DNA from: Terriglobia bacterium
GTDB taxonomy: Bacteria > Acidobacteriota > Vicinamibacteria > Vicinamibacterales > CAVVIG01
Assembly (NCBI GenBank): GCA_020073005.1
Contig: JAIQFX010000037.1
Location: 18-64,017, forward strand
Reading direction: 5' to 3'
Length of the DNA stretch: 64,000 nucleotides
Under the pieces are notes generated by a model. That model did no database searches and had not been told where the DNA came from. It saw nothing but the letters and a program-made list of their open reading frames with translations. The position numbers and the translations under genes are program-made. Shown piece by piece: positions 20,336 through 43,770 of the stretch; the first letter of the stretch is position 1, and each line of letters opens with the position of its first letter.

Positions 20336-20617
20336 GTCCTTCCGCAGGGCGAGCCTTCCAGGCGTGACGCTCGGCTGAAAGCCTCGCGCGACAAGTCGAT
20401 CCGACCTCGGTAGGAGTACCGTCCGACCAAAGTCGGATCCATCGGACAGGAGTCTGGCCCGTGCGGTCAACCGGTTGTCCATGTCTGCCGCGCAAACGCC
20501 GCGTGACGTTTCCAACACAACGGCGTGCCGCCGATCACAGTGTGCAAGCGGCCGCGTCGCCGCAAGACGCGTCGACTAAGATGACGTGAACCTCCCGATC
20601 CGACGGCACGCGCACAC

Positions 20618-21997
<1,380 letters not shown>

Positions 21998-22006
21998 TCG
22001 TTCTCC

Positions 22007-22029
22007 CCAGCCACCAGCCACCAGCCACC
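22007..22029. repeat. three tandem copies of heptamer CCAGCCA (the same repeat family as 15924, opposite strand)
   Basis: ccagcca ccagcca ccagcca cc, 10 nt after the EBP stop codon. Confidence 0.7.
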
Positions 22030-22039
22030 GGGACTCTCT

Positions 22040-22092
22040 CGTCCCACCCGCGCAGTTTTCACCCGTCCACGTGGGACGCGGGCGTCCCACCC
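22040..22092. promoter_or_regulatory. candidate enhancer (UAS) for the sigma-54 activator
   Basis: cgtcccaccc occurs at 22040-22049 and again at 22083-22092. An inverted copy gtgggacg lies at 22071-22078. The sites are 70-120 nt upstream of the sigma-54 promoter, the usual EBP-site distance. Confidence 0.4.
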
Positions 22093-22159
22093 TCCGCTCG
22101 ACGCATCCAGCATTCGACGTTTTGGCGAATGTTTCCGCGCGGCCGCCCCGGCGCCGCGA

Positions 22160-22175
22160 TGGCGCGTGCGTTGCT
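22160..22175 (+). promoter_or_regulatory. sigma-54 (-24/-12) promoter
   Basis: TGGCGCG-TGCG-TTGCT against the consensus TGGCACG-N4-TTGCW. GG-N10-GC spacing is exact and there is one mismatch. It lies between the EBP gene and the first gene of the injection-system operon. Confidence 0.7.
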
Positions 22176-22189
22176 GAACCCGAGCCATC

Positions 22190-22492
22190 TTGCAAGAGGG
22201 GCAACGCGCCGATCCAGCGGTGATCAAAGAAGTCTTGCGCTATTTCATCCAGCACCCGCACGCCGCCGACGACCTCGAAGGCATCACTCGATGGCGTCTG
22301 GTCGAGCACCAGATCCGGCAGCGCGTCGAGGAAACGCGGCGCGCGCTCGCGTGGCTGGTCGATCGCCACTACCTGCAGCGCGACGTCCGCGGTGGGCCGG
22401 TGCCGATCTTCACGCTGAACCCCGACAAGGTCGATGCCGCCCGCGCGCTGCTCCGCAGCGACGAGCCGGCGCCGCGGGAACCGCAAGGATAA
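22190..22492 (+). CDS. small hypothetical protein, possibly winged-helix-like; first gene after the sigma-54 promoter
   Basis: Strong third-position G/C bias. The sequence is VIKEVLRYFIQHPHAADDLEGITRWRL...ALAWLVDRHYLQRDVRGGPVPIFTLNPDK. The start is ambiguous: a TTG at 22190 would be almost leaderless, and an in-frame GTG lies at 22220. I do not recognise a family. Confidence 0.55.
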   Translation: MQEGQRADPAVIKEVLRYFIQHPHAADDLEGITRWRLVEHQIRQRVEETRRALAWLVDRHYLQRDVRGGPVPIFTLNPDKVDAARALLRSDEPAPREPQG

Positions 22493-22495
22493 CGC

Positions 22496-23086
22496 GTGGC
22501 CAGTTATCAGTCCATTGCGGCGGTGGGCAAGAGCATCGAGCGCCTGTTGAACGCGGCGTTCGCCGAGGATCCCGTGCCCGTCGACAACAAGACGACGCGC
22601 GCGTACCTCGTGCGGAGCGAGGACTTCGATCGCACGTCGGCCGCCACGATCATCGTCCGGCCGGCGCTGTCGATCTTTCTCTACCGCGTCGACTTCAACA
22701 AGACGATGCGCGCGGCGTGGGCGGGCGTGACCGCCAACGACGGCCTGCCGCACCTGCCGCTCGATCTGCACTTCCTGCTGACGCCGTGGGGCGACAACGC
22801 CGAAGCGGAGAGCGCGATTCTCGGCCGCGCGATGCAGTGTCTCGACTCGGCGCCGATTCTGAGCGGCCCGCTGCTCCATCAGTCCGGCGAGTGGCAGCCA
22901 GGCGACGCGATTCAACTGCTGATGGACGAAATCAGCACGGAAGCGGTGATGCGGACGTTCGACTCGCTCGAAGCCGACTACCGCGTCAGCGTGCCGTACA
23001 TCGCGCGCGTGATCCGGCTCGACGGCCGCAAGGCCGCGCCGCCGCCCGACGTCACGACCGTCGTCGCCGGAGCGCGACCGCTGTGA
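22496..23086 (+). CDS. DUF4255 (Pvc16/Afp16 N-terminal-like) tail terminator/cap protein
   Basis: 196 aa with a GTG start and an aagga SD. SIAAVGKSIERLLNAAF ... LSIFLYRVDFN ... LPLDLHFLLTPWG ... AILGRAMQCLDSAPILSG ... SVPYIARVIRLD is a typical DUF4255 motif order. Confidence 0.8.
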   Translation: MASYQSIAAVGKSIERLLNAAFAEDPVPVDNKTTRAYLVRSEDFDRTSAATIIVRPALSIFLYRVDFNKTMRAAWAGVTANDGLPHLPLDLHFLLTPWGDNAEAESAILGRAMQCLDSAPILSGPLLHQSGEWQPGDAIQLLMDEISTEAVMRTFDSLEADYRVSVPYIARVIRLDGRKAAPPPDVTTVVAGARPL

Positions 23087-23093
23087 GCCCCCT

Positions 23094-23921
23094 GTGAGCG
23101 ACGTCAACACGTTTCTGTCGTCCGCGTTCACGGAGCAGATCAAGCGGCTGATCCTGGGCGTCGAGCCCGTCGACGCCATGCGGCGATCGCGGATCGCGCG
23201 TCCGATCGAGCTGACGCTCGACGGCGTGCCGTACCCGACGGGCACCGTGACGAAGGAAGAGTTCGACGGCACGACCGATCCGCTCGGCTACCTCTCGTCC
23301 ATTCCGAGACACAGCTCGTGCCGCCACGCGCTCGTGTATCCGCCCGATCACGCGTCGCCGATCGCGATCCGGCTCTACGACCGGACGCGGCGCTTCGTGC
23401 CGCGGCGCATCAGCTACGCGATCCCGGATGCGATCGAAACCCGCTCCTCAACGCGCGTGCGACGGCCGGCGCTCTATCCCGGCGCGGCGTACGACGTGAG
23501 CGTGACGGCGACGGGCATGCGGGGCCGCGTCACCTGGAATCAGTCGGACGACGACGAAGTGCCGGCGCGGTGGGTGCGCGTGGAGGCCGCGATCGACGGC
23601 CAGATCGTCGGGCGCGCGCACGGCGACGATCGCGGCGAGTTCCTGCTCGTGCTGCGGAACGAGGCCGGAGGGCTCGGCGATCTGCCGTCGCCGCTCGTCG
23701 CCGACGTCACGGTCTACGGACCGGCCGGGCCGCAGACAGTTCCGGACGACGATCCGCTGGGCGATCTGCCGCTCGAAATCGTGAGCGCGGATCCGGACGA
23801 GGTGTCGGATGGAGAAACGCCGCCGAGCGGGTACGCCGCGACGGCGCACAGCAGCCGGGCCGTGACGTTCGAGCTCGGCACGCTCTTGACCGGTCAGGAC
23901 AAATTTTTTTTCAACGCCTAG
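23094..23921 (+). CDS. hypothetical protein (possible beta-sandwich, carboxypeptidase-regulatory-like segment)
   Basis: 275 aa with good coding bias. MRGRVTWNQSDDDEVPARWVRVEAAIDGQIVGRAHGDDRGEFLLVL resembles prealbumin-like fold repeats. No family is assigned. Confidence 0.5.
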   Translation: MSDVNTFLSSAFTEQIKRLILGVEPVDAMRRSRIARPIELTLDGVPYPTGTVTKEEFDGTTDPLGYLSSIPRHSSCRHALVYPPDHASPIAIRLYDRTRRFVPRRISYAIPDAIETRSSTRVRRPALYPGAAYDVSVTATGMRGRVTWNQSDDDEVPARWVRVEAAIDGQIVGRAHGDDRGEFLLVLRNEAGGLGDLPSPLVADVTVYGPAGPQTVPDDDPLGDLPLEIVSADPDEVSDGETPPSGYAATAHSSRAVTFELGTLLTGQDKFFFNA

Positions 23922-23951
23922 CGCGGAAGACGACGACAAGGAGCGAACGAT

Positions 23952-25802
23952 ATGCCCGAATACCTTGCCCCGGGAGTGTACGTCGAAGAAGTCAGCTTCC
24001 GATCGAAGTCCATCGAAGGCGTGCCGACGAGCACGACGGGCTTCGCCGGCATGACGCGGTTCGGGCCCGTGCACTATCCGGACGGCCCCACGACCACCGA
24101 GCCGCGGCTGATCACGAGCTTCACGGAATTCGAGAGCGTGTACGGCGGCCTCGAGGCCCTGCACGCGCCGACCGAAGCCGACGAGCGGCTGAGCTACGTC
24201 GCCCACGCGGCGCGCGCGTTCTTCATGAACGGCGGCACGCGGCTCTACATCTCGCGCGTCTTCGCGCCGCGCGGCGTGGATCCGAACTTCGACTACGGCA
24301 TCGCGACGCTGCCGATCGCCGTCAGCGGCACGACGGCGACGTGGACCGCGCGGTGGCCGGGCGAGATGGGCAACGCGTGGATCAAGGTCGAGGTCGTCCG
24401 CAGCAAGAACGCCGCGTACCAGGCGTCGGAATTCGGCAACAAGGTGCAGGTCAACGGCGCCAAACTCGGATCGATCGTCGAGGTCATCACGGGCGGCACC
24501 GTGCCGGACGGGAACGATCCGCTGACGCTCGCCAATCTCGCGCAGATTTCGATCGACGCGACCGACGGCCATCAGATCTTCAACCGCGGCGGCGGGACGT
24601 TCCTGCCGAACTCGACCGACATCATTCAGAACCTCACGCTGAAAGTCACGGTCACGACCGATGACCAGCGCAACAAGGCGTACGACAGCCTCGAGACCAG
24701 CGACGACACGAAGCGCTACATCGGCAAGATCCTCCAGGCGAACAATCCCGAGGACGAGAACGCGGTCGTGTACCTCGACTGGGATGTGACCAAGGCCGTC
24801 GGCAACGACATCGACGCCAACCTGATGGTCGCGCTGCAGGCGAACTCGGGCAGCCGGCTGAGCGGCGGTCACGACGGCGTCGTCGCGAGCGCCGCCGATC
24901 TCGCGGGCGAGGACGCGGATCCGGACGATCCGCTGATCAAGGCGACGGGCCTCGCCGCGCTCGGCGAGATCGACGACATCGCGATCGTCGCGCTGCCGGA
25001 CGCGGGCGCGCTCGGCGATCTCGACGAGAGCCACACGGCAGTCGACTCGCTCATCACGCACGCCGAGACGCTGCGGTACCGCATCGCGGTCGTCGACGCG
25101 CCGCCCGGATCGTCGATGACGCAGATCCGGAACTTCCGCGGCCAGTTCGACAGCTCGTACGCCGCCCTCTATCACCCGTGGATCGAAATCCTCGATCCGA
25201 CGGAGCGTCCCGCACAGGGCGCGCCGCCGCAGCGGCTGGTGCTGCCGCCGAGCGGCTTCGTCACCGGCATCTACGCGCGCACGGACATCCGGCGCGGCGT
25301 CTTCAAGGCGCCGGCGAACGAGATCGTCCGGGGCCTGACGAAGTTCGAAGCCAACATCAACAAGCCGCGGCAGGACGTGCTGAACCCGGAAGGGATCAAC
25401 GCGCTGCGCTTCTTCGAGGGACGCGGCAACCGCGTCTGGGGCGCGCGGACGATGAGCTCCGATCCCGAGTGGAAGTACGTCAACGTCCGCCGGCTGTTCA
25501 TCTTCCTCGAGCACTCGATCGACAAGGGCACGCAGTGGGCCGTGTTCGAGCCGAACAACGAGCGGCTGTGGGCGAACATCCGCAGCACGATCGAGGACTT
25601 CCTGCTCGTGCAGTGGAAGTCGGGCGCGCTGCTCGGGTCCAAGCCCGAGGAGGCGTTCTTCGTCCGCTGCGATCGCACGACGATGACGCAGAACGATCTC
25701 GACAACGGGCGGCTCATCTGCCTGATCGGCGTCGCGCCGACGTATCCGGCCGAGTTCGTGATCTTCCGCATCGGCCAGTGGACGGCCGATTCGCAGAGCT
25801 AG
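23952..25802 (+). CDS. contractile tail sheath protein (copy 1)
   Basis: 616 aa. MPEYLAPGVYVEEVSFRSKSIEGVPTSTTGFAG is the canonical sheath N-terminus. The C-terminal NRVWGARTMSSDPEWKYVNVRRLFIFLEHSIDKGTQWAVFEPN is the sheath C-terminal domain. Confidence 0.9.
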   Translation: MPEYLAPGVYVEEVSFRSKSIEGVPTSTTGFAGMTRFGPVHYPDGPTTTEPRLITSFTEFESVYGGLEALHAPTEADERLSYVAHAARAFFMNGGTRLYISRVFAPRGVDPNFDYGIATLPIAVSGTTATWTARWPGEMGNAWIKVEVVRSKNAAYQASEFGNKVQVNGAKLGSIVEVITGGTVPDGNDPLTLANLAQISIDATDGHQIFNRGGGTFLPNSTDIIQNLTLKVTVTTDDQRNKAYDSLETSDDTKRYIGKILQANNPEDENAVVYLDWDVTKAVGNDIDANLMVALQANSGSRLSGGHDGVVASAADLAGEDADPDDPLIKATGLAALGEIDDIAIVALPDAGALGDLDESHTAVDSLITHAETLRYRIAVVDAPPGSSMTQIRNFRGQFDSSYAALYHPWIEILDPTERPAQGAPPQRLVLPPSGFVTGIYARTDIRRGVFKAPANEIVRGLTKFEANINKPRQDVLNPEGINALRFFEGRGNRVWGARTMSSDPEWKYVNVRRLFIFLEHSIDKGTQWAVFEPNNERLWANIRSTIEDFLLVQWKSGALLGSKPEEAFFVRCDRTTMTQNDLDNGRLICLIGVAPTYPAEFVIFRIGQWTADSQS

Positions 25803-25850
25803 GTGAGATGTAGGGCGAGCCTTTCAGGCGAGCCGTAATCGGAGGCAACG

Positions 25851-26312
25851 ATGGCAACTTTCCGGGACAACCCGTACGGCGCATTCAACTACCTCGTGGC
25901 CCTCGGCGGCGATCAGGGCGACGGCTCCGAGGGCACGATCGTCGGCGGCTTCTCAGACGTGTCTGGCCTCGGCTACGACGTGAGCTACTCGGATTACCGC
26001 AACGGGAACGAGCGCGTGAACACGATGCGGCACATCCCCAACACGTTCAAGAACGACGAAATCACGCTCAAGCGCGGCGTCGTCGGCTCCACCGATCTCT
26101 TCCAATGGCTGAAGGGCGTCGCGGACGGCAAGGCCGATCCGCGGACGGTCACGATCACGATGCTCGACGAGGCGCGCAGCCCCGTCGCCGTCTTCAAGGT
26201 CCGCCAGGCGCAGCCCAAGAAGTGGACGGGCCCGACGCTCGCCTCCAAGGGCGGCGGCGAAGTCGCGATGGAAGAGATCCACCTGGTGCACGAAGGCATC
26301 GAGTACCAGTAA
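25851..26312 (+). CDS. tail tube protein (T4 gp19-like / Afp1-5-like), copy 1
   Basis: 153 aa. NPYGAFNYLVALGG ... GGFSDVSGLGYDVSYSDYRNGNE ... ITLKRGVVGSTDLFQW ... EEIHLVHEGIEY. Confidence 0.85.
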   Translation: MATFRDNPYGAFNYLVALGGDQGDGSEGTIVGGFSDVSGLGYDVSYSDYRNGNERVNTMRHIPNTFKNDEITLKRGVVGSTDLFQWLKGVADGKADPRTVTITMLDEARSPVAVFKVRQAQPKKWTGPTLASKGGGEVAMEEIHLVHEGIEYQ

Positions 26313-26324
26313 GGAGCCGCCGCG

Positions 26325-28379
26325 GTGACCGCGTCTCTCGCGTCGCTCGCGCTCGGGGCGCCGGGCATCTACCCGGCCGCCAGCGAGCCGATTCGCATGC
26401 TGACCGGCGTGCGCATGGACGTCTGCGCGTTCGCGGGCGTCGCGCCGCGCGGTCCCGCGCGCGATCCGTACTTCGACGCCGAGTGGGCGCCGAAGCCGGA
26501 GTCGGAGCGGCCGCGCGATCTCAACGTCAAGCTCGCGACGCCGGTCGCGGTGGAAAGCTGGAGCGAATACACGCGCCTGTTCGGATCGTTCGAAGGTCCC
26601 GGCCTTCTGCCGTACGCGGTCTCCGCGTTCTTCGACAACGGCGGCCGGCGCGCGTACATCGTCCGCATCGTCCATCAGTACTTCAAGGCTGACGGATCCG
26701 GCGATGACGACAAAAACGGCGCCGGATTCGCGCGGGCCGCATTCGCGGGACTGACGGCGAGCGGCGGCCGCGCCGTCTGGGTCCGCGCGCGCAACGAGGG
26801 CTCGTGGGGGAACAGCCTCCGCGTCACGCTTTCGTTCACCGCGCGCACGCTCGGCCTCGCCGCGTCCGACTTCTACGTCGATCGCCTCAGCCTGCCGAAC
26901 GGCGCCGACGCCGTGCCGGGCGCGGTGCTCCGCTTGTTCCTCGGCGCCGGCGTGAAAACGATCCGGCGCATCTCGCTCGTGACCGAGGACTGGAATCCGC
27001 TCGACGGATCGCGGCAGACGTGGGCCTGGTTCGATCACGCCACGGCATCGGCCGCGCAATCCGCCGAGCTGATCGAAGGCGTCGTGACGATCGACGACGG
27101 CGTCAACGCGATCGAGACCTTCGAGCACGTCGGGCTGGCCGCGAACCATCCGCGCTGGCTGGCGAACGTCCTCGTCAACGACTCTGAGCGTCTGTATCCC
27201 TGCGACGATCCCGCGCTGGGCAGCGGCAATCCGCTCGCGTCGTGGATCGACGCGGACCTCGACGTCGACGCGCGGCTCGATCCGATCGCGACGGCTGTCT
27301 TCACCGGCGGCACCGACCGTTACGCCGACATCGTGCCGGAGGATTTCTTCGACAGCGAGTGGGTCCTCGGCGACGACGCGCCGGGCTGCGGCGTCCACGC
27401 GCTGACGCAGCTCGACGATCTCTCGCTCGTCGTCGTGCCGGATCTGTACTCGCCCGGCGCCCTCGCGCCGATCGAATCGATCGTCGAGCCCGCCACGTTT
27501 GCGGGCGCGGAGTTCGCCGAGTGCATCGACCCGGCACCGCCCGACGCGCAGGGCGAGCCGGCCGAGGACCTGACCGGCCTCCGGCTCGATCCTTCCGTCG
27601 ACTTCGACGCCATCGTCGCGCTCCAGCGGCAGCTCGCCGATCTCGCGGACGATCTCGAATCGTTCATCGTCCTGCTCGACGTGCCGCCGCGCCTGAGCCA
27701 GAAGAAGATGCTGAACTGGCGCGCGAAGTTCGACAGCGCGTATGCCGCCGCGTATTACCCGTGGCTGGACGTCACGCGGGCCGACGACGCGCGCGACGCC
27801 AAGATCGCGGTGAATCCATCGGCCGCCGCCGCCGGCATCATCGCGCAGCGCGAGACGCAGTTCGGCGTGCCGTACGGTCCGGCCAACGTGATCGCGACGG
27901 GCGTCGTCGCGGTCGAGGATCGCGTCTCGCCCGCGCGTCACGCCGAGCTGCACCAGAACGCGGTCAACGTCTTCGTGCCCGAGCGCGACGGCGTCCGCCT
28001 GACCGCGGCGCGGACCCTCTCGCGCGATCCGCAGTGGCGGCAGCTCAACGTCCGCCGCCTCGTGACGATGATCCGGCGCGTCCTCGAGCGCCAGATGCAG
28101 TGGGTCGTCTTCGAGCCCAACACGCGACAGCTGCGATTTCAGATCGCGCGCCTGCTCGACGCGTTTCTCCGGCAGCTCTATCGCGCCAACGCGTTCGCGG
28201 GCGCGACGGAAGCCGAGGCGTTCTTCGTCAAGTGCGACGACGAGCTGAATCCGCCGGTGTCGCAGGAGGCCGGGCGGCTGCTGGCGCACGTCGGCGTCGC
28301 GCCGGCCGAGCCGCTCGAGTTCATCGTCGTCAACCTCGCGCGCGAAGGCGATTCCATCCTGACGGCGGAGGACCACTGA
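26325..28379 (+). CDS. contractile tail sheath protein (copy 2, longer)
   Basis: 684 aa with a GTG start. LGAPGIYPAASEP...VCAFAGVAPRGP. The C-terminal part reads AAYYPWLDV ... NVFVPERDGVRLTAARTLSRDPQWRQLNVRRLVTMIRRVLERQMQWVVFEPN. Confidence 0.85.
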   Translation: MTASLASLALGAPGIYPAASEPIRMLTGVRMDVCAFAGVAPRGPARDPYFDAEWAPKPESERPRDLNVKLATPVAVESWSEYTRLFGSFEGPGLLPYAVSAFFDNGGRRAYIVRIVHQYFKADGSGDDDKNGAGFARAAFAGLTASGGRAVWVRARNEGSWGNSLRVTLSFTARTLGLAASDFYVDRLSLPNGADAVPGAVLRLFLGAGVKTIRRISLVTEDWNPLDGSRQTWAWFDHATASAAQSAELIEGVVTIDDGVNAIETFEHVGLAANHPRWLANVLVNDSERLYPCDDPALGSGNPLASWIDADLDVDARLDPIATAVFTGGTDRYADIVPEDFFDSEWVLGDDAPGCGVHALTQLDDLSLVVVPDLYSPGALAPIESIVEPATFAGAEFAECIDPAPPDAQGEPAEDLTGLRLDPSVDFDAIVALQRQLADLADDLESFIVLLDVPPRLSQKKMLNWRAKFDSAYAAAYYPWLDVTRADDARDAKIAVNPSAAAAGIIAQRETQFGVPYGPANVIATGVVAVEDRVSPARHAELHQNAVNVFVPERDGVRLTAARTLSRDPQWRQLNVRRLVTMIRRVLERQMQWVVFEPNTRQLRFQIARLLDAFLRQLYRANAFAGATEAEAFFVKCDDELNPPVSQEAGRLLAHVGVAPAEPLEFIVVNLAREGDSILTAEDH

Positions 28380-28852
28380 TGGCCTCCACGCTCGCGGGCA
28401 CGTTCAACTTCCGCGTCACGCTGAACCGCAGCGACGGCAGCTCGCCGCCGCTCGGCGACGGCGGCTTTCAGGAGTGCACCGGCCTCGATCTCGAAATGGA
28501 CGTCGTCGAGCTGATCGAAGGCGGCCGCAACAACGGCACCGTGCGGCAGGCCGGGCGCGGCAAGTTCAGCAGCATCGTGCTCAAGCGCGGGATGCTCTTT
28601 CCGGATCGCGGCGAAGTGAACAACGGACTGTGGAGCTGGATCCAGAGCGTGTTGAACGGCGAGCGCCCGATCGCGCGCTACGACGGCGTCATCGAGGTGC
28701 TGTCGGCCGACGCCAACGACACCGTCGCGACGTGGACGTTCGACCGCGGGCTGCCGCAGAAGATTTCCGGTCCGCACCTCAACGCGAAGAGCGGCGAGAT
28801 CGCGATCGAGGAACTGACGATCGCGCACGAAGGCCTGCGTCTCAAGGTGTGA
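28379..28852 (+). CDS. tail tube protein, copy 2
   Basis: 157 aa. The ATG at 28379 overlaps the sheath-2 stop (TGATG). FNFRVTLNRS...GGFQECTGLDLEMDVVELIEGGRNNGTVRQAGRGKFSSIVLKRGM ... EELTIAHEGLRL. The track shows it only as the tail of spurious ORF 27242..28852. Confidence 0.85.
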   Translation: MASTLAGTFNFRVTLNRSDGSSPPLGDGGFQECTGLDLEMDVVELIEGGRNNGTVRQAGRGKFSSIVLKRGMLFPDRGEVNNGLWSWIQSVLNGERPIARYDGVIEVLSADANDTVATWTFDRGLPQKISGPHLNAKSGEIAIEELTIAHEGLRLKV

Positions 28853-28856
28853 TGCC

Positions 28857-30215
28857 ATGCCGACGCTGAAGAAAGCCACGCTGCAGGAAATCAAGGCCGA
28901 CGCGAGCGCCGCGCCGCTCGGGCCCGAGATCGAAGTGCAGTTCAACCCGGCGTCGCTGAGGCTCGAGCTGGCGAACAGAATCGAGGGCGGCGAATCGAAG
29001 GGCAAGCAGCAGCGGCAGTACCTGGGCAAGACGTCGACGACGCTCTCTTTCGATCTGCACTTCGACACGGCCGATCAGGGCACGACCGACGCGCCGGTCT
29101 CGGTGCGCACGCTCACCGCGCAGGTCGAGAAATTCCTCCTGCCGAAAGGCGAGGGCAACGCGAAGCAGGCGCCGCCCAAGTGCCGGTTCCACTGGGACGA
29201 GCTCGTCATCGACGGCATCATCGAGAGCGTCTCGATCGACTTCGATCTGTTCGCGTCCAACGGCACGCCGCTGCGCGCGAAGATGGGCGTGTCGATCAAG
29301 GAACAGGACGCGAAGTACGAGCTGCTCCAGAGCGGTCCCGGCGCGAACACGGCCGCCGGCGCATCGCCGTCCGGGGCCTCGCTGGCGGCGGGAAGCTCGA
29401 TCAGCCCGCCGGATCGCAGCGCCGATGCGCTCGAGGGCGAATCGGTGGCGGACTTCGCGGCTCGCATGGGGCTCGACCCGTCGGCGTGGCGCGGGATCGC
29501 GGACGGCCTCGGCGCGGCGAGCTCGCTGTCGCTGTCGGCGGGCCTGTCGATCGGCTTCAGCTCGTCGCTCTCCGCCAGCGCCGGCATCGGCGTCTCGGTC
29601 GGCGTCGAAGCCGGCGCGAGCGCGTCGCTGGACGCGTCGTTCGGTCTCGACGCCAGCGCGAGCGTGAAGGTCGCGTCGGGATCGAGCGCATCGACCTCCT
29701 CCGGCCTCGCGCTCACCGCGGCAGGAGGCGTCGGCGCGGCGCTGGAATCCGTCGCGAGCGCGAAAGCGCAGAGTGCGGCCGGCGACGCCAAGCGATCGTT
29801 CGCGTCGGCGGCGCCGTCATCCGCGCCGTCCTCCGCATCTTCATCGTCGGCGCCGAGCGGGGCCGCATCGAGCCTGCCGTCGAGCATCGCCGCGGCGCTG
29901 CCGCCATCGACGATGCCGAAGCCGTCGCTGCCGGAACAATCGCGCACGCCGCTGCAGTTGAGCGGCCTGCCGTCGCCGGCGACGCAAGCCGCCACACCGA
30001 GCGCGCCGCCGCCGCCGGCCGCCGATCCGCGCACGACGTCGTTCGGCTTCGGCGTTCCGCTGAAACCGCGATCGAACGTGACGGCGGCGACGGCGGCGCC
30101 GAACGATCCATCGGCCGCGCCCTGGACGCGGCCGCCCGTCGTATCGGCGACAACACCGGCGAGCCCGTGCAGCTGTCGCCCGCGGCGCCGTCAGGGAGCG
30201 CACACATGCCAGTGA
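28857..30215 (+). CDS. tube-fold N-terminal domain protein (Afp7-like tube initiator, LysM-like segment) with a long Ser/Ala-rich tail
   Basis: 452 aa. The N-terminal roughly 150 aa (IEVQFNPASLRLEL ... TLSFDLHFDT ... CRFHWDELVIDGIIESVSIDFDLFASNGTPLRAKMGVSIKE) resemble the CIS tube-like domain. GESVADFAARMGLDPSAWRGIA is LysM-like (tentative). Residues from about 170 to 400 are Ser/Ala/Gly low complexity. Confidence 0.65.
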   Translation: MPTLKKATLQEIKADASAAPLGPEIEVQFNPASLRLELANRIEGGESKGKQQRQYLGKTSTTLSFDLHFDTADQGTTDAPVSVRTLTAQVEKFLLPKGEGNAKQAPPKCRFHWDELVIDGIIESVSIDFDLFASNGTPLRAKMGVSIKEQDAKYELLQSGPGANTAAGASPSGASLAAGSSISPPDRSADALEGESVADFAARMGLDPSAWRGIADGLGAASSLSLSAGLSIGFSSSLSASAGIGVSVGVEAGASASLDASFGLDASASVKVASGSSASTSSGLALTAAGGVGAALESVASAKAQSAAGDAKRSFASAAPSSAPSSASSSSAPSGAASSLPSSIAAALPPSTMPKPSLPEQSRTPLQLSGLPSPATQAATPSAPPPPAADPRTTSFGFGVPLKPRSNVTAATAAPNDPSAAPWTRPPVVSATTPASPCSCRPRRRQGAHTCQ

Positions 30216-30382
30216 CGATCGGCGAGCTGACCACCGAAGTGATCGCGGAAGACGCCGCGCCCGCGGCGAGCGCCGGCGCGGCGGCGGGCGATGAGCCGCA
30301 GCACCTCACGATGATTCGCGCCCAGATGGCGGCCGTCGCGCGCGAGACGATGCGAACGCGCGCGGAAGGGTTCGATGACTGA
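30206..30382 (+). CDS. small DUF5908-like (Afp6/Pvc6-like) protein
   Basis: 58 aa. MPVTIGELTTEVIAEDAAP... matches my recollection of the MP[IV]EI.EL N-terminus of the roughly 60-aa eCIS-associated family. It overlaps both neighbours (by 10 nt and 8 nt). It is hidden in the track inside ORF 29180..30382. Confidence 0.55.
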   Translation: MPVTIGELTTEVIAEDAAPAASAGAAAGDEPQHLTMIRAQMAAVARETMRTRAEGFDD

Positions 30383-31454
30383 TCTCTTCGTCTCGAAGTC
30401 GCCCGTCTTCAAGGTGGACGGCCAGGTGCGCGGCGAGCTCGCGCGCGACATGTCGTCGCTGCGGATCGACGAGGCGACCGACGGTCTCAAGACGATGGTG
30501 TTGAACCTGACGGCCGAGGGGCCGCAGGACAACGCGGCCGAGGAACAGCAGCTCTATCTCGACGGCCGGATCGTGGATTTCGGCAAGGCGATCGAAGTGT
30601 CGATCGGACCCGGCGACAACGCGCGGATCGTGTTCAAGGGCGTCATCAGCGCGATCGAAGTGAACTTCAGCGGCGGCGGCGTGCCTCACGTCACCGTGTT
30701 CGCGGAGGACAAGCTGATGAACCTGCGCATGACGCGGCGCATCAAGACGTGGGAGAACATGACCGACGCCGATATCGCGAGCCAGATCGCGTCCGAGAAC
30801 GGGCTGACCGCCGACACATCCGCGACGGGGCCGACCTACAAGGTCGTCCAGCAGTGGAACCAGAGCGATCTCGCGTTCCTGCGCGAGCGCGCCCGCCTGA
30901 TCCAGGCCGAGGTGTGGTTCGACAACGACACGCTCTGCTTCAAGACGCGCGGCAACCGCGCCGGCACGACGATGACGCTCGTGCAGGGCCGCGAGCTGAT
31001 CGACGTGCAGATTCGCGCGGATCTCGCGCACCAGCGCACGAAGGTCAAGGCCAGCGGCTTCGACGCGGGCGCTCGCGATCAGATCGACGAAGAGTCGGGA
31101 TCGGACGCGATCCAGGCGGAGATCTCCGGCGGCCGCACCGGCCCCGCGGTCCTCGAGCAGGCGTTCGGCGAGCGCGTGTCGTACCGCGTGCGCGAGAATC
31201 CGCTCGCGTCGGGCGAAGCGAGCGCGTGGGCCAAGGCGGAGATGCTGCGCCGGTGCCGCGGCTTCGTCACGGCGCTCGGCACGACCGACGGCTCGCCGGA
31301 CATGGTGGTCGGCAGCACGCTGAACCTCGATCGCGTCGGCGCGCCGTTCAACGGCGACGGCTACTACGTCGTCCACGTGTCGCACACCTACGATCTCGCC
31401 CACGGGTACCGCACGCACTTCGAAGCGCAGCGGCCCACGATCAACGAGGCCTGA
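30375..31454 (+). CDS. phage late control gene D (gpD)-like baseplate hub protein
   Basis: 359 aa. TVFAEDKLMNLRMTRRIKTWENMTDADIASQIASENGLTAD ... QQWNQSDLAFLRERARLIQAEVWFDNDTLCF ... GDGYYVVHVSHTYD. Confidence 0.85.
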   Translation: MTDLFVSKSPVFKVDGQVRGELARDMSSLRIDEATDGLKTMVLNLTAEGPQDNAAEEQQLYLDGRIVDFGKAIEVSIGPGDNARIVFKGVISAIEVNFSGGGVPHVTVFAEDKLMNLRMTRRIKTWENMTDADIASQIASENGLTADTSATGPTYKVVQQWNQSDLAFLRERARLIQAEVWFDNDTLCFKTRGNRAGTTMTLVQGRELIDVQIRADLAHQRTKVKASGFDAGARDQIDEESGSDAIQAEISGGRTGPAVLEQAFGERVSYRVRENPLASGEASAWAKAEMLRRCRGFVTALGTTDGSPDMVVGSTLNLDRVGAPFNGDGYYVVHVSHTYDLAHGYRTHFEAQRPTINEA

Positions 31455-31455
31455 T

Positions 31456-32127
31456 GTGAAGATCGATGCCTTCAGGCCCGACGGCGACGCGCCCCGCTAC
31501 TTCGGCGTGTACCCCGCCATCGTCACCGACCTCACGAAGGACAGCGAGAGCCTCGGCCGCGTCGAGGTGAAGTTTCCGTGGCTCGGCGCGGACGGCTCGG
31601 ACGTGCGCGCGCTCGCGACGCTGTGCACGCCGTACGCCGACGACGATCAGGGGCTCGAGATCATTCCGGAAGTCGACTCGCAGGTCGTCGTCGCGTTCGA
31701 AGCCGGAGTGCTCACCCGGCCGTACATCATCGGCGCCTGCTGGAACGGACAAGAGTCGCTGCCGGAGAGCCCGACCGCCGCGAACAACAAGCGGCTCATC
31801 AAGACGCGATCGGGGAGCCAGCTCGAGTTCGACGACACGTCCGGCGCCGCAAAAGTCACGATCTCGATGAAGAGCGGGCACGTCCTCGTGCTCGACGACA
31901 GCGCGCAGGAGATCAAGCTCACGCACTCGAACGGCTGCCTGCTCAAGATGAACGCCGCGGGCCAGGTCTCGCTCACGGCCAACTCCACGGTCGAGATCAC
32001 GGCGTCGGCCGTGAACGTCCACGCCGCGACGGCCACCTTCGACGGGATCGTGAACTGCACGACGCTGATCGCGTCGAGCGCGGTCGTGTCGCCGTCCTAC
32101 ACGCCGGGCGCCGGCAACATCTGGTGA
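31456..32127 (+). CDS. gp5/baseplate-V (VgrG C-terminal-like) spike protein
   Basis: 223 aa with a GTG start. YFGVYPAIVTDLTKDSESLGRVEVKFPWLG ... IPEVDSQVVVAFEAGVLTRPYIIGACWNG is an OB-fold. It is followed by beta-helix-like repeats (KVTISMKSGHVLVLDDSAQEIKLTHSNGCLLKMNAAGQVSLTANSTVEITA). Confidence 0.85.
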   Translation: MKIDAFRPDGDAPRYFGVYPAIVTDLTKDSESLGRVEVKFPWLGADGSDVRALATLCTPYADDDQGLEIIPEVDSQVVVAFEAGVLTRPYIIGACWNGQESLPESPTAANNKRLIKTRSGSQLEFDDTSGAAKVTISMKSGHVLVLDDSAQEIKLTHSNGCLLKMNAAGQVSLTANSTVEITASAVNVHAATATFDGIVNCTTLIASSAVVSPSYTPGAGNIW

Positions 32128-32131
32128 CGCG

Positions 32132-33853
32132 ATGACGCATCCGATCGAACGCGACTGGATGATCGTGGCGCCCTGGTGGCGGTGGACCGATCCCGCGACG
32201 GTTCCGGCGGGCACGCCGGTCACGCCCGATCCGGCGAAGGGCCGGCTCTCGACGCCGATCTTCCAGAAGTACGACTCGGCCAGCCTCGTCACGGACTTCA
32301 TGAAGGATCCGCAGCGCTGCCTGACGTTCGTCGACGACGATCTCGTCCACGCGGTCCGCGCGCGATCGGGCGCCTCGACGAGCAAGGCGGGCAAGCTCTT
32401 CCGCATCACGGCCAGCACGCAGTCTGGCGCGGTGGTCGATCAGGAATACGTGCCTGACGGCACCGACACGCGAAAGATCTTTCTCAACACGCACAAGCGT
32501 TTCTATCTCGCCGTCTGCGACGTGCGGTGCGACGGCCCGGGCTTCCCGAAGGTCGCGCGCAACAAGATTTGCCAGGCGGGGTTCGTCGTCCGGCGGCGCA
32601 CGCTCACGGCTCCAGGAAATGCGCTCGACGAAGTGAAGCCGATCGTGAAGCGCTTGACGACGAGCCGGAGCAAGCTGGCGCGCGTCAACGAACTGAGCGA
32701 GATCGAGCAGTTGGCGCTCAGCGAGGCGACCGGCGGCAAGACGACGACGAGCGCCAAGCTCGAGTCGCTCCTGAAGACGCGCGCGTCGCTGCAGGATCTG
32801 CTCGCCACGGAGCGGGACCGCTTCGACGCGTGGGTGAAGCGGTTCAACGTCGTCCCGCAGCTGCAGGGCTGGTTCCCGTCGCCGAAGGGCTTCGCGAACG
32901 TCGGCTACTGGGGAACCGTGAGCGAGAGCCCGGATGCGCTCGGTACTGAGTCGAGCTTTCCGCTTTACCCGCTGATTCCCGATCAGAACGATCCGGATCA
33001 CGACGGCCAGTTCGGGACGATCTACTTCGGGCTCCTGCCGGTCTCGTCGCACGACTGCGACGAGACCGGCCGCGCGCGCTTCGACGATCAGGAGTACTAC
33101 GAGGTGCGCTGCTGGGTGACGCGGCATCTCGTGCCGCACGATCCCGATCAGCCGTGCCCGTGCCCCGACGGCATCTTCTGGAGCCGGCCGACGCGGCCGT
33201 ACAAGCTCGCGCCGCACTTCGATCTCGCGGGCACGAGCAATCAGCCCATCACGATCCAGCTGCCCGATCTCAACGCGCTCGCCGCGCAGGCGAAGCCGAC
33301 GCTCGGCGTCGGGTTCGCGAAGCCGCCGGGCTCGCTCATGCTCCAGACCTCCACCGACGGGACGCCCAAGAAGAAGGACTCCGGACGATCCGCGTCATTC
33401 GAGATCTGCTTCTTCCCGATCCCGCTGATCACGATCGTCGCGACGTTCGTGTTTCAGCTCTTCCTGCCTGTCGTCATGTTCGTCTTCCAGTTGTGGTGGA
33501 TGCTCGCGCTGAAGTTCTGCATCCCGCCCGAGATCGAAGTCGGCGCCGCGATCAGCGCCGAGATCGGACTCGGCGGGCAGATTGGCATCAAAGCCGACGT
33601 GGACCTCGACGCCGAGATCGAGGCGCGCATCGATGGGGCCGTGCAGCTCAGCGTGAACAAGGCGTTCGATCCTGCGACCGCGGCTTCTCTGCTCGCCACG
33701 TACTCGCCGATCGCGCTCGCGAACCTGGAAGTCGGCGCCAGCTCGGCGGCGGCCGCGACCGACACGGATCCGGACACGACCGCTCCCGCCGGCGCCGACG
33801 TGCCGTCGGCCGTCGCCAATCTCGACTACGAGCCTGAGGTCACGCACGCATGA
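32132..33853 (+). CDS. unassigned 573-aa protein with a C-terminal hydrophobic hairpin, located between spike and gp25
   Basis: Good coding bias. It has Cys-containing motifs (YLAVCDVRCDG, SSHDCDETG, VRCWV, QPCPCPDG). A roughly 40-residue hydrophobic stretch, FEICFFPIPLITIVATFVFQLFLPVVMFVFQLWWMLALKFCI, is encoded at about 33398-33526. I do not recognise a family. Confidence 0.6.
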   Translation: MTHPIERDWMIVAPWWRWTDPATVPAGTPVTPDPAKGRLSTPIFQKYDSASLVTDFMKDPQRCLTFVDDDLVHAVRARSGASTSKAGKLFRITASTQSGAVVDQEYVPDGTDTRKIFLNTHKRFYLAVCDVRCDGPGFPKVARNKICQAGFVVRRRTLTAPGNALDEVKPIVKRLTTSRSKLARVNELSEIEQLALSEATGGKTTTSAKLESLLKTRASLQDLLATERDRFDAWVKRFNVVPQLQGWFPSPKGFANVGYWGTVSESPDALGTESSFPLYPLIPDQNDPDHDGQFGTIYFGLLPVSSHDCDETGRARFDDQEYYEVRCWVTRHLVPHDPDQPCPCPDGIFWSRPTRPYKLAPHFDLAGTSNQPITIQLPDLNALAAQAKPTLGVGFAKPPGSLMLQTSTDGTPKKKDSGRSASFEICFFPIPLITIVATFVFQLFLPVVMFVFQLWWMLALKFCIPPEIEVGAAISAEIGLGGQIGIKADVDLDAEIEARIDGAVQLSVNKAFDPATAASLLATYSPIALANLEVGASSAAAATDTDPDTTAPAGADVPSAVANLDYEPEVTHA

Positions 33854-34239
33854 GCGCGATTGCCTTTCTCGGCCAGGGATGGAATTTCCCCGTGGCGCCG
33901 CCGCCCTCCGGCGGAGCGCTCGAGTACGCCTCGGGCCCGGACAAGGTCGCGCAGTCGATCTGGATCATTCTCGACACCGATCCGGGCGAGCGCGTGATGC
34001 GGCCGACCTTCGGCTGCGGGCTGCGCCGGTATCTCATGGCGCCCAATACGACGGCGACGCGCGCGCTGATCAAGCACGACGTGCAGATCGCGCTCGCGAC
34101 GCTCGAGCCGCGCATCACCGTGACGGATCTGCAGGTCACGCCGGGCGACGATCCCGCGCTGGTGCTCATTCGCGTCGCGTACCTCAACATCCGCGACAAC
34201 CGGCCGGGCAACCTCGTGTACCCGTTCTATCTGGAGTAG
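33850..34239 (+). CDS. GPW/gp25-family baseplate wedge protein
   Basis: 129 aa. GQGWNFP ... VAQSIWIILDTDPGERVMRPTFGCGLRRYLMAPN ... The start overlaps the upstream stop (ATGA). Confidence 0.85.
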   Translation: MSAIAFLGQGWNFPVAPPPSGGALEYASGPDKVAQSIWIILDTDPGERVMRPTFGCGLRRYLMAPNTTATRALIKHDVQIALATLEPRITVTDLQVTPGDDPALVLIRVAYLNIRDNRPGNLVYPFYLE

Positions 34240-34245
34240 CGACGC

Positions 34246-36489
34246 GTGCCCCTGCCAACCCCGATCCTCGACGATCGTTCCTACCAGCAGCTCCGCGACG
34301 AGCTGATCCGGCGCATTCCCGTCTACGCGCCCGAGTGGACCGATCACAACGCGAGCGATCCGGGCATCACGCTGATCGAGCTGTTCGCGTTCCTCGGCGA
34401 GAACCTGCTCTACCGCTTCAATCAGATTCCGGAAGCGACCAAGCTCGCGTTCCTCAAGTACCTGCAGATTCCGCTCCGGCCCGCGACCGCGGCGCGCGCG
34501 ATGGTCACGATCAAGACCTCCGGCACGAGCAGCTCGGTTCTCGTGCCGATCGCGACCGAGATGCGCGCCGGCTCGGTGCCGTTCGAGTCGCTCACCGAAG
34601 TGTCCGCGTGGCCGCTCGAGATCACCGCGATGGGCAAGATCGTCGCGGCGAAGCCGACGTCGCCCGACAGTCTCGAATTCACTGAAGCGGCGATCGCCGC
34701 GCGCGGCGGTCTGAAAGCGAAGGAGCAGGCGGCCTACTACACGAACGCGACCGTGCCCGGCGATCCGACGGCGGCGACGGCGGCGCCGGTGGATTTCTCG
34801 GTCGCCTCGACCTCGGTCGACTACTCGAAGTCCGTCGACGGCGCGATCTGGATCGCGGTCCGCAAGACCAAGGACACCGACATCGGCGCGCTCGACAAGG
34901 GACTTCTCAGTCTCGGCTTCGTGCCCGATCCCGTCGTCCCCACGATCGAAGAGATCGACGCGTGCCCAGGCGCGGGGCGATCGTCGAGCAGCGGCTCAGA
35001 AATGATCTGGCAGGCGTCGACGTCAACGCTCGAGGCGAACGGCCTGCCCGCCTACACGAGCATCACGGTCGAGCGAGACACGACGCGCGGTCTGGAAACG
35101 CAGGGCACCGTGCAGCTGCGGCTGCCCGACAACGTCGAAACGGCGCTCGGTGTGGTCGCGCTGTCCGACGTCGATCGCGGCGGCACCGACACGTTCCCGC
35201 CACAGATCGAGGACGACGATGTCGCGAAGTCGGTGATCTTCTGGCTGCGCGCGACGCGGCGCGATCCCTCGCGCCCGCTCGGCAAGATTCTGTTCATCGG
35301 CATCAACGCGACTGAAGTGGTGCAGATGATCACGGCGCCGCCGGAGTTCGTCGGCACCGGCACGGCGGGCGCCAGCCAGGTCTACAAGCTGGTGCACACG
35401 CCGGTCATCAACGGCACGACGTCGATCCAGGTCGAAGAGCCGCAGGGCTGGACCGATTGGCAGGCCGTCGACGGCTTCGAGGAAAGCACGGAAGACTCGC
35501 GGCACTACGTCCTCGATCCGGAAGCCGGAACGATCACGTTCGGCAACGGTGTGCGCGGCCGTGCGCCGCAGATCGGCGAACGCATCCGCGCGGTCGAGTA
35601 CCGGTACGGCGGCGGCGCCGATGGCAACGTCGGCGCAAAGGCGATCACGAAGATCGTCGGCGTCAGCAGCGTCGCCGCGAGCAATCCGCTGCCCGCCGTC
35701 GGCGGCGCGCCCGGCGAAACCGTCGCCGAAGGCCTCGAACGGGTCCCCGGCGAATTCCGCCGCCACGATCGCGCGGTCACGCAAAGCGACTTCGAAGAGC
35801 TCGCGCTCGCCACGCCCGGCGCTGGCGTCGGCCGCGCCGATTGTCTGCCGCTCTTCGATCCGCGAACGAAGAACCCCGATGCCGCCGGCGTCGTGAGCGT
35901 CGTCGTCTGGCCGCGCGAGGATCTCGCGCACCCGAACGCACCGGTGCCGGATCGCGCGCTGCTCTCACAAGTGTGCGAGTGCCTCGACGCGCGACGCCTG
36001 ATCACGACCGAGCTGTACGTGATCCCGCCCACGTACAGACGCATCGCCGTCGCCGTCGGACTGCAGGCGAAGCCCGGGTACGGCATCGAGGCCGTGCGGC
36101 GATGGGCCGAGCTCGTCGTCCGTCAGTACCTCTCGCCGCTTCCGCCGTACGGACCGTCGGGCGACGGCTGGCCGCTCGGCACCGACGTGTACGGACCGGA
36201 GCTCGAAGCCGCCGTGCTGCAGGTCGAAGGCGTGCAGTTCATCGAGTGCCTGCGTCTCGCGGTGTGGGACGAGACCAAGAAGGCGTGGGTCGAAGCGATG
36301 GCCGAGGCCACGACCGACGGGAGCAACTGCCCGCCGCGCGAAAAGATCCCGATGAAGGCGTGGGAAGTCCCCGAGGTCGCGGAGATCACGGTGGTGCAGG
36401 GCGACGCGATGACGCCGGGCGAAGCGCTCGGCCCGGTGACGCCGCCGCTCGTGCCCGTGCCGATCCCGACGATCAAGAGCGAGTGCTGA
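34246..36489 (+). CDS. baseplate J / gp6-like (Afp11-like) baseplate protein
   Basis: 747 aa with a GTG start. LDDRSYQQLRDELIRRIPVYAPEWTDHNASDPGITLIELFAFLGENLLYRFNQIPE ... RAVTQSDFEELALATPGAGVGRADCLP ... LITTELYVIPPTY. Confidence 0.85.
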   Translation: MPLPTPILDDRSYQQLRDELIRRIPVYAPEWTDHNASDPGITLIELFAFLGENLLYRFNQIPEATKLAFLKYLQIPLRPATAARAMVTIKTSGTSSSVLVPIATEMRAGSVPFESLTEVSAWPLEITAMGKIVAAKPTSPDSLEFTEAAIAARGGLKAKEQAAYYTNATVPGDPTAATAAPVDFSVASTSVDYSKSVDGAIWIAVRKTKDTDIGALDKGLLSLGFVPDPVVPTIEEIDACPGAGRSSSSGSEMIWQASTSTLEANGLPAYTSITVERDTTRGLETQGTVQLRLPDNVETALGVVALSDVDRGGTDTFPPQIEDDDVAKSVIFWLRATRRDPSRPLGKILFIGINATEVVQMITAPPEFVGTGTAGASQVYKLVHTPVINGTTSIQVEEPQGWTDWQAVDGFEESTEDSRHYVLDPEAGTITFGNGVRGRAPQIGERIRAVEYRYGGGADGNVGAKAITKIVGVSSVAASNPLPAVGGAPGETVAEGLERVPGEFRRHDRAVTQSDFEELALATPGAGVGRADCLPLFDPRTKNPDAAGVVSVVVWPREDLAHPNAPVPDRALLSQVCECLDARRLITTELYVIPPTYRRIAVAVGLQAKPGYGIEAVRRWAELVVRQYLSPLPPYGPSGDGWPLGTDVYGPELEAAVLQVEGVQFIECLRLAVWDETKKAWVEAMAEATTDGSNCPPREKIPMKAWEVPEVAEITVVQGDAMTPGEALGPVTPPLVPVPIPTIKSEC

Positions 36490-36490
36490 C

Positions 36491-38779: not shown

Positions 38780-38783
38780 CGCC

Positions 38784-42372: not shown

Positions 42373-42384
42373 GGAGGGACGATC

Positions 42385-43746: not shown

Positions 43747-43770
43747 GACATCCACGAGGAGGATCGCGAA

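Follow-up and report, generated by a model that had tools for sequence, protein, structure and literature searches.

The stretch of DNA analysed here (hereafter the window) comprises 64,000 nucleotides of contig JAIQFX010000037.1 from a Terriglobia bacterium of the Acidobacteriota (assembly GCA_020073005.1). It has a GC content of 69% and carries on its + strand, as judged from Pfam matches, a complete operon of about 30 kb for an extracellular contractile injection system (eCIS), which runs from 22220 to about 51805. Directly upstream lies the gene for an enhancer-binding protein (EBP), and the gap between this gene and the operon holds a −24/−12 element of the sigma-54 type, 3' of which the operon begins, as well as two dyad-symmetric sites. 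In this report, we focus on this control region, on the EBP and its receiver-like N-terminal domain, and on the conservation of the arrangement in related loci. The features of the window are collected in Table 1.

Table 1. Features of the control region, the activator gene and the eCIS operon in the window
Feature	Position	Strand	Basis or remark
EBP gene, 459 aa	20618..21997	+	Sigma54_activat, AAA_lid_14, HTH_8 (Pfam)
Pseudo-receiver domain, receiver (beta-alpha)5 fold	20618..20953	+	profile against PDB, AlphaFold2, Foldseek
GAFTDA, variant GAFTGA L1 loop	21245..21262	+	translation
C-terminal Fis-type helix-turn-helix with GNITQAARSAGQDRRAFGRLVKR	21851..21970	+	HTH_8; Asp441 covaries with palindrome type
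CCAGCCA tandem heptamer, 3.3 copies, perfect	22007..22029		directly after EBP stop, abuts UAS-1
UAS-1, distal candidate enhancer site GGGACTCTCTCGTCCCAC	22030..22047		centre about −148 from predicted start
UAS-2, proximal candidate enhancer site GTGGGACGCGGGCGTCCCAC	22071..22090		perfect 20-nt palindrome; centre about −105
Putative AT-enriched spacer including ATTTCCGCGCGG	22110..22143		AT content and alignment
Sigma-54 −24/−12 element TGGCGCGTGCGTTGCT	22160..22175	+	consensus scan and conservation in orthologous loci
First operon gene, conserved 90-aa protein	22220..22492	+	conserved in all related loci
Operon structural and effector genes	22496..51805	+	Pfam, GC3-based coding calls
Pvc16_N cap/terminator	22496..23086	+	Pfam
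Sheath	23952..25802	+	Pfam
gp19-type tube	25851..26312	+	Pfam
Second sheath	26325..28379	+	Pfam
CIS_tube	28857..30215	+	Pfam
gpD hub	30375..31454	+	Pfam
OB-fold spike	31456..32127	+	Pfam
gp25	33838..34239	+	Pfam
Baseplate_J	34246..36489	+	Pfam
Tail_P2_I	36491..38779	+	Pfam
Pvc15-like AAA+ ATPase with winged-helix domain	40402..42372	+	Pfam
eCIS_core/DUF4157 protein	49787..51805	+	Pfam

The control region and the activator gene

The element TGGCGCGTGCGTTGCT has its GG at 22161–22162 and its GC at 22173–22174, differs from the consensus TGGCACG-N4-TTGCW at one position, and is the sole match with at most one mismatch in the window. A preliminary description, made from the sequence alone, had proposed a sigma-54 promoter here with exact GG-N10-GC spacing, and both its coordinates and its sequence proved correct. 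By itself, the match is not significant, because 32 of 100 shuffled windows hold at least one match of this quality (mean 0.38). Its placement counts for more than the bare match: it lies in the single relevant gap, the 220 nt that separate the EBP gene from the operon, is on the same strand as the operon and precedes the first eCIS gene by about 45 nt. This gene most likely starts at the GTG codon at 22220, a predicted start which is favoured because the N-terminus is conserved across loci, and transcription is predicted to begin near 22186, about 12 nt downstream of the −12 GC.

Farther upstream, the sequence cgtcccaccc occurs at 22040–22049 and 22083–22092, and gtgggacg at 22071–22078. These had been described as two direct copies and one inverted copy; the coordinates are correct, and the arrangement is not, as what is repeated is a single dyad, GGGAC-N6-GTCCCAC, present at 22030–22047 and again at 22073–22090. 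The centres of the two sites, UAS-1 and UAS-2, are 43 nt apart, and that of UAS-2 is 80.5 nt 5' of the −24 GG. Three strand matches to this dyad were found against 0.27 expected, a number reached in none of 100 shuffles. Matches to the palindrome with one mismatch at 17123, 34899 and 51407 were considered as extra operators; they are probably not, with about 2.5 expected from the null rate and all of them intragenic. The perfect CCAGCCA tandem repeat next to UAS-1 was not seen in the relatives inspected.

Between the dyads and the promoter, the AT content rises to 0.44–0.49 against 0.31–0.35 in the flanks, as calculated from 48 aligned promoters, and ATTTCCGCGCGG is common to the window and one relative (L001). 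This spacer may be a bending or IHF-type segment. IHF-like AATCAA...TT motifs are seen in the spacers of four other relatives (L104, L119, L141 and L163). Downstream of the −12 element by about 15 nt, the motif (A)TTGG is conserved in many relatives, which suggests a conserved element of the 5' untranslated region. No Rfam family matched within 21900–22600, so that no known riboswitch or leader is present there. Across the window, sigma-54-like motifs with at most two mismatches are depleted (one match, where dinucleotide shuffles predict 7.7 ± 2.3), which could reflect selection against spurious binding sites or an effect of codon structure.

The EBP is composed of a pseudo-receiver (residues 1–112), a linker helix (118–130), an AAA+ domain (135–301), a lid (307–381) and a Fis-type helix-turn-helix (HTH) (412–451). 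In Pfam scans, Sigma54_activat (PF00158) matches with an E-value of 1.6e-60 over profile positions 1–167 of 168, AAA_lid_14 with 2.3e-20, and HTH_8 with 7e-05 (22.9 bits against a cutoff of 22). The Walker A (GETGTGKE) and Walker B (LFLDEID) motifs are present and invariant in the family. Judged by its domains, the protein is a true bacterial EBP, for which open-complex activity is predicted. No named activator family of NCBIfam reaches its cutoff for this protein, the best being AtoC with 300 bits against a required 714. More than 100 full-length homologs with 50–71% identity were found in soil metagenomes. A scan of the genome collection with the full EBP alignment, intended for orthology, was set aside: the universal motifs GETGTGKE and NE[LM]FGHxRGA had been chosen, and among the matches listed were only paralogs, which were partial and at most 49% identical. 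EBPs are common in Acidobacteriota genomes among the same listed matches, and these paralogs served as the background set for the frequency of loop variants.

The GAFTGA motif in the L1 loop of EBPs contacts sigma-54. The open reading frame (ORF) and the variant loop, GAFTDA, had both been recognized in the preliminary description and were recovered here. From sequence comparison, GAFTDA appears to be a natural variant and no lesion, because it is the norm of the family and roughly one in five of the nearest generic EBPs has it as well. Within the family, 115 of 118 homologs have GAFTDA or GAYTDA; the G, A, F/Y, T and A residues of the loop are kept, and the fifth residue is Asp.

The N-terminal domain is a receiver by fold and not by chemistry. 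Pfam Response_reg was not detected in it (one of 30 family sequences gave a match, at E 0.054) and is annotated in none of the more than 100 full-length homologs; its weak Pfam match is GlnR_1st, and FleQ (PF06490) is absent from the matches of the 30 family N-terminal domains even at E ≤ 10. Nevertheless, a profile of these 30 N-termini aligns end to end with the receivers of PmrA/BasR, PhoB and PhoP in the PDB (E about 5e-7). The AlphaFold2 model of the domain (pLDDT 84.5, pTM 0.76) has strands at residues 3–8, 24–29, 44–48, 71–75 and 93–96. All of its Foldseek matches in the PDB are receivers or pseudo-receivers, with target-normalised TM-scores mostly of about 0.6–0.7 (range 0.6–0.72), and include canonical receivers as well as the non-phosphorylated GlnR, AmiR and CpaE/TadZ. 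Pseudo-receivers are known in other regulators, too.

According to the hidden Markov model alignments, the column of the acceptor Asp (PhoB D53) is occupied by Val48, the beta4 Thr is replaced by Leu75 and the beta5 Lys by Trp97. The family consensus at these positions reads ADLIVPVA, P.LAILP and DF..WP, and hence the acceptor residues are missing family-wide. The loss of the phospho-acceptor Asp, suspected earlier, is therefore borne out, and extends to the Thr and Lys. Other acceptors were considered and rejected: Asp43 is at the wrong end of beta3, and Asp93 precedes the aromatic switch position and is no acceptor. Since Val, Leu and Trp take the places of Asp, Thr and Lys, the domain is predicted, from sequence and model, to be incapable of phosphorylation as a receiver. 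Asp93, Phe94, Glu103, Arg107 and Arg110 are invariant in the family and all lie on beta5/alpha5, the usual dimerisation and signalling face of receivers, and a conserved, coiled-coil-like helix (118–130) joins the domain to the AAA+ domain. Neither a histidine kinase nor any other conserved partner gene adjoins the EBP gene in the window or in seven orthologous loci, and the window as a whole contains no histidine kinase and no second EBP. One relative (L087) does have a kinase, which goes with another EBP of canonical type.

Conservation in related loci

Two sets of loci were compared. The first was anchored on the EBP and consisted of seven exact-protein look-ups of orthologs with 52–64% identity, giving eight loci with the window. 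In all seven look-ups, the ortholog adjoins an eCIS operon, co-directionally in six and divergently in one (L002), and these operons show at least three gene orders. When scanned with at most two mismatches (three in L085), each of the eight loci has exactly one GG-N10-GC element in its target intergenic region that lies on the strand of the operon. Eight of the 16 sigma-54-type matches across the set thus fall in target regions that make up 0.7% of the search space, as do 11 of the 16 matches to GGGAC-N6-GTCCC with at most one mismatch.

The second, independent set was anchored on the operon: the product of the first gene was used to fetch 80 metagenomic loci with 56 unique promoters, the best sigma-54 match in the 200 nt upstream was scored, and 2134 windows from the same loci served as the null. 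A match with at most one mismatch was present in 21% of the promoters and 0% of the null windows, with at most two in 59% against 0.4%, and with at most three in 89% against 3.8%. In 46 of 50 loci, the motif ends 38–68 nt upstream of the start codon. Positions that the search did not fix are also kept among 47 promoters, namely T−26 (43), C−23 (41), A−22 (28), T−15 (39), T−14 (all 47) and W−11 (40). Of the unique loci, 29 extend for more than 2 kb upstream, and 28 of these have an EBP ortholog there in the same orientation as the operon, usually with a gap of 170–490 nt to it. This near-obligate adjacency supports the term "dedicated", which the preliminary description had applied to the EBP, and its proposal that sigma-54 controls the injection operon gains support from a predicted promoter and dyads that are conserved over dozens of orthologous loci relative to matched controls.

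The dyads are conserved as well. With at most one mismatch, GGGAC-N6-GTCCC occurs in 39 of 55 upstream regions and in 1.2% of null windows. Its centre tends to lie 60–63, 72–75 or 80–85 nt from the −24 GG, in three clusters with steps of one helical turn, and the proximal dyad of the window belongs to the third cluster; distal copies in relatives are found 150–190 nt from the −24 GG. Loci without this dyad carry a symmetric variant, GGGTC-N6-GACCC, in which both half-sites have changed together, and 56 of the 61 unique loci, compared with 3.2% of the null windows, have the combined form GGGWC-N6-GWCCC.

The type of palindrome follows the residue with which the recognition helix of the EBP starts. 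EBPs whose HTH reads DRRxFGR accompany the GGGAC palindrome in 28 of 30 loci, and those with ERRAFGR accompany GGGTC in nine of nine, so that the Asp/Glu residue matches the palindrome type in 37 of 39 classified loci. A rough neighbour-joining tree places the Glu/GGGTC state on no fewer than four distinct branches amid Asp/GGGAC lineages. This covariation is the strongest in silico sign that the EBP itself reads the dyads, to which it is predicted to bind.

In the divergent locus L002, the promoter and both palindromes are kept downstream of a short gene fragment of the Methyltransf_1N type (MGMT N-terminal), which lies between the EBP gene and the enhancer region (5424–5684, 5064–5423). Another relative, L084, has a near-consensus sigma-54 element, TGGCACACTCGTTGCT, at 559 on the − strand, just 5' of an eIF-1a/infA-like gene (317–535, − strand), which is a candidate for an unrelated sigma-54 promoter.

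Mechanism, alternatives and known systems

We consider it probable that the sigma-54 promoter and the adjacent EBP, acting through the dyads, switch on the eCIS operon without a phosphorelay. The operon would be transcribed from the −24/−12 element, at which, as established sigma-54 biology suggests, the sigma-54 holoenzyme would wait as a closed complex. EBP dimers would bind the dyads near −105 and −148 through the Fis-type HTH, as the covariation indicates, and would assemble into an AAA+ ring that reaches the promoter by looping over the AT-enriched spacer. The GAFTDA loop would then engage sigma-54, and ATP hydrolysis would open the promoter. With a receiver-fold module that appears not to be phosphorylatable, and since no kinase is linked to it, the activity of the EBP would not be set by a two-component phosphorelay. 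Most likely, the pseudo-receiver is a phosphorylation-independent module for dimerisation and gating, working through its invariant beta5–alpha5 face and the coiled-coil-like linker. It may respond to a ligand or a protein partner, or the activity may simply follow the amount of the EBP.

Several points weigh against this account. The promoter of the window is GC-rich and has G instead of A at −22, which may bear on its strength, and rpoN is absent from the 64-kb window, the only part of the metagenome-assembled genome that was covered; the commonness of EBPs in Acidobacteriota genomes lends its presence elsewhere indirect support. GAFTDA differs from the canonical GAFTGA, so that its contact with sigma-54 is a prediction, and the covariation between HTH and site is phylogenetically structured. 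The small product of the first gene co-occurs with the dyads in every locus and is therefore an alternative candidate for binding them. Finally, a scan of 20300–22600 gave no intrinsic terminator behind the EBP gene, and because of this, read-through from the EBP gene could add to transcription of the operon.

Three other explanations draw on these points. The dyads could be real sites that are bound by another protein, either the 90-aa product in feedback or an unlinked transcription factor, with the EBP acting from solution or from other sites, as some EBPs work without DNA binding. The modelled layout of the 90-aa protein, helices and a beta-hairpin, recalls winged-helix proteins, and a weak SarA-like match was obtained (E 0.44); nevertheless, it has no significant match to a DNA-binding family or fold, the palindrome variant follows the recognition helix of the EBP on separate branches, and the placement of the sites, from −100 to −190 and in helical phase, is that usually seen for EBP enhancers. 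We therefore regard this explanation as unlikely. It is still less probable that the operon depends mainly on a housekeeping-sigma promoter or on read-through, with the −24/−12 match being minor or non-functional. The match on its own is within the reach of chance, and acidobacterial sigma-70 promoters are poorly defined, so that a scan could miss one. However, no sigma-70-like site was found in 20300–22600, the element is kept in sequence and position across the unique promoters far above the controls, and read-through is disfavoured because the divergent locus L002, where it is impossible, retains both the promoter and the dyads.

It is likewise very doubtful that the EBP-like protein does not activate sigma-54 at all, and is instead a conventional repressor or activator or a non-transcriptional AAA+ factor of the eCIS. 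Apart from the departure of its L1 loop, this explanation can point to EBP-like proteins with sigma-54-independent roles, such as FleQ as a repressor and NtrC of Rhodobacter. Repression of a type VI secretion system (T6SS) by FleQ has been cited (PMC10482370). On the other side, the EBP is in every case accompanied by a conserved sigma-54 promoter, and many EBPs that are ordinary in other respects naturally have GAFTDA or GAYTDA. The loop also keeps its F/Y and T residues, and nothing is missing from the ATPase motifs. None of these rivals has support comparable to that of the sigma-54/EBP model.

Control by sigma-54 and EBPs is established for T6SSs, whose clusters encode VasH, acting with RpoN in Vibrio cholerae, V. 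fischeri and Aeromonas, or Sfa2, acting with RpoN on the H2-T6SS of P. aeruginosa, FleQ being a further example (reviewed in PMC10482370). Like VasH and Sfa2, the EBP of the window is encoded with a contractile-injection cluster and appears to be specific to it, and is predicted to activate its sigma-54 promoter. In contrast, its target is an extracellular system of the Afp/PVC type (Pvc16, Pvc15-like ATPase, DUF4157) and not a membrane-anchored T6SS, its host is a soil bacterium of the Acidobacteriota, and it falls in no named family and carries a pseudo-receiver. With NtrC, NtrC1 and DctD it shares the order of receiver, AAA+ and Fis-type HTH, the helical linker between receiver and AAA+ domain, and pairs of dyad-symmetric sites about 100–150 nt upstream of a −24/−12 promoter, and NtrC1 (4l4u, 1ny5) and NtrX are among the best structural matches of its domain. 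It is unlike them in having Val48, Leu75 and Trp97 for Asp, Thr and Lys, no nearby kinase, no Response_reg match and a GAFTDA loop. In keeping the receiver fold without phospho-acceptor chemistry, it resembles the actinobacterial GlnR (4o1h), AmiR (1qo0) and the ARD of CpaE/TadZ (4myr, 4lda), which are among the top fold matches, and the REC-like domain of FleQ. These pseudo-receivers have other output domains and belong to other sequence families, whereas the present family is marked by the motifs ADLIVPVA, P.LAILP and DF..WP...E...R..R.

Regulators named earlier for eCISs are GerE/LuxR, BTAD and RfaH (Geller 2021, PMC8213781) and the TetR-like Afp6 (Chen 2019, PMC6899500). These, including RfaH/AnfA1, are likewise encoded beside eCIS operons and were proposed as their controllers, but belong to other classes than the present EBP and imply sigma-70-type or antitermination mechanisms. 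The text of Geller 2021 contains no mention of sigma. Its supplementary tables list Sigma54_activat in eCIS loci (49 genes in four phyla, odds ratio 1.59, p about 0.04, "Shell"), and include the cultured betaproteobacterium Leptothrix cholodnii SP-6 (NC_010524), in which Lcho_3032 (EBP), 3033 (72 aa), 3034 (afp16) and 3035 are followed by sheath, tube and sheath up to 3038 (PMC8213781). This is the gene order of the window. The Leptothrix EBP is annotated with 361 aa and may be without a pseudo-receiver, and in the same supplementary data Pelobacter propionicus has a canonical EBP containing Response_reg (Ppro_0378) with a kinase beside an eCIS. Links between EBPs and eCISs thus exist with several kinds of input domain.

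A full-text literature search retrieved no paper that links eCISs to sigma-54, RpoN or EBPs, and the searched literature holds no description of the eCIS promoter, the operator dyads, the pseudo-receiver family or a code relating Asp/Glu to A/T. The association is latent in public data and unanalysed in the searched literature. The preliminary description had called the arrangement distinctive; this holds for eCISs, for which no such case was found, and not for the logic, which is already the sigma-54/EBP scheme of T6SSs.

It was noted in 2023 that it is unclear how many of the eCIS clusters are under regulation and by which elicitors they are induced (PMC10598620). In culture, most eCISs stay silent, and this stands in the way of studying their function and of engineering them. 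A small, conserved switch that seems to be complete in itself, composed of one activator gene, two dyads and a −24/−12 promoter, provides a direct handle: overexpression of the EBP, or of a form from which the receiver is deleted, should turn on the whole 30-kb operon. Such an induction switch is concrete and probably portable, and concerns machines whose regulation is an acknowledged gap. In addition, the covariation of Asp/Glu with A/T is a testable specificity code, the pseudo-receiver points to a new regulatory input to be sought, and Leptothrix cholodnii SP-6 (Lcho_3032–3038) offers a cultured organism for testing the circuit. The sigma-54 theme would thereby be extended from T6SSs to extracellular injection systems, the mechanism itself being orthodox. 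More speculatively, and with less than even confidence, we suggest that the large, unnamed family of pseudo-receiver EBPs may be the dedicated master switch of a clade of soil-bacterial eCISs, mainly in Acidobacteriota and at least also in Leptothrix, in which the Asp or Glu that opens the recognition helix decides, as a readable operator code, between GGGAC and GGGTC dyads, the dead receiver conveys a phosphorylation-independent signal, and the 90-aa product possibly acts as a feedback partner. If true, no induction circuit for environmental eCISs would have been defined before this one, which could be transplanted to switch them on.

The operon and its first gene

In all related loci, the sigma-54 promoter is followed first by the gene for the 90-aa protein. 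Its residues Asp17, Glu20, Gly21, Trp25-Arg26-Leu27 and Trp45-Leu46-Val47 are invariant. It has no match in Pfam or NCBIfam and no significant match in the PDB, a word-based homolog search yielded five sequences, and its AlphaFold2 model, which is of moderate confidence (pLDDT 74), has no Foldseek match at E < 6. Conceivably, it regulates by feedback, partners the pseudo-receiver or helps in assembly.

The remaining ORFs of the operon were called as coding by their GC content at third codon positions (GC3), and their domains were taken from Pfam scans. Together they comprise the hallmark set of an eCIS, namely sheath, tube, spike, the gp25, J and I baseplate proteins, the Pvc16 cap, a Pvc15-like AAA+ protein and DUF4157, and none of the T6SS markers TssJLM, TssA and ClpV is among their Pfam matches. 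The genes 5' of the EBP gene are metabolic and unrelated to the eCIS. Five sizeable ORFs of the operon (23094–23921, 32132–33853, 38784–40409, 42385–43746 and 43771–45120) have no match in Pfam, and the three of them that were compared with NCBIfam have none there either. The first of the five, of 275 aa, directly follows Pvc16_N, a position which is kept in the relatives and in Leptothrix (Lcho_3035).

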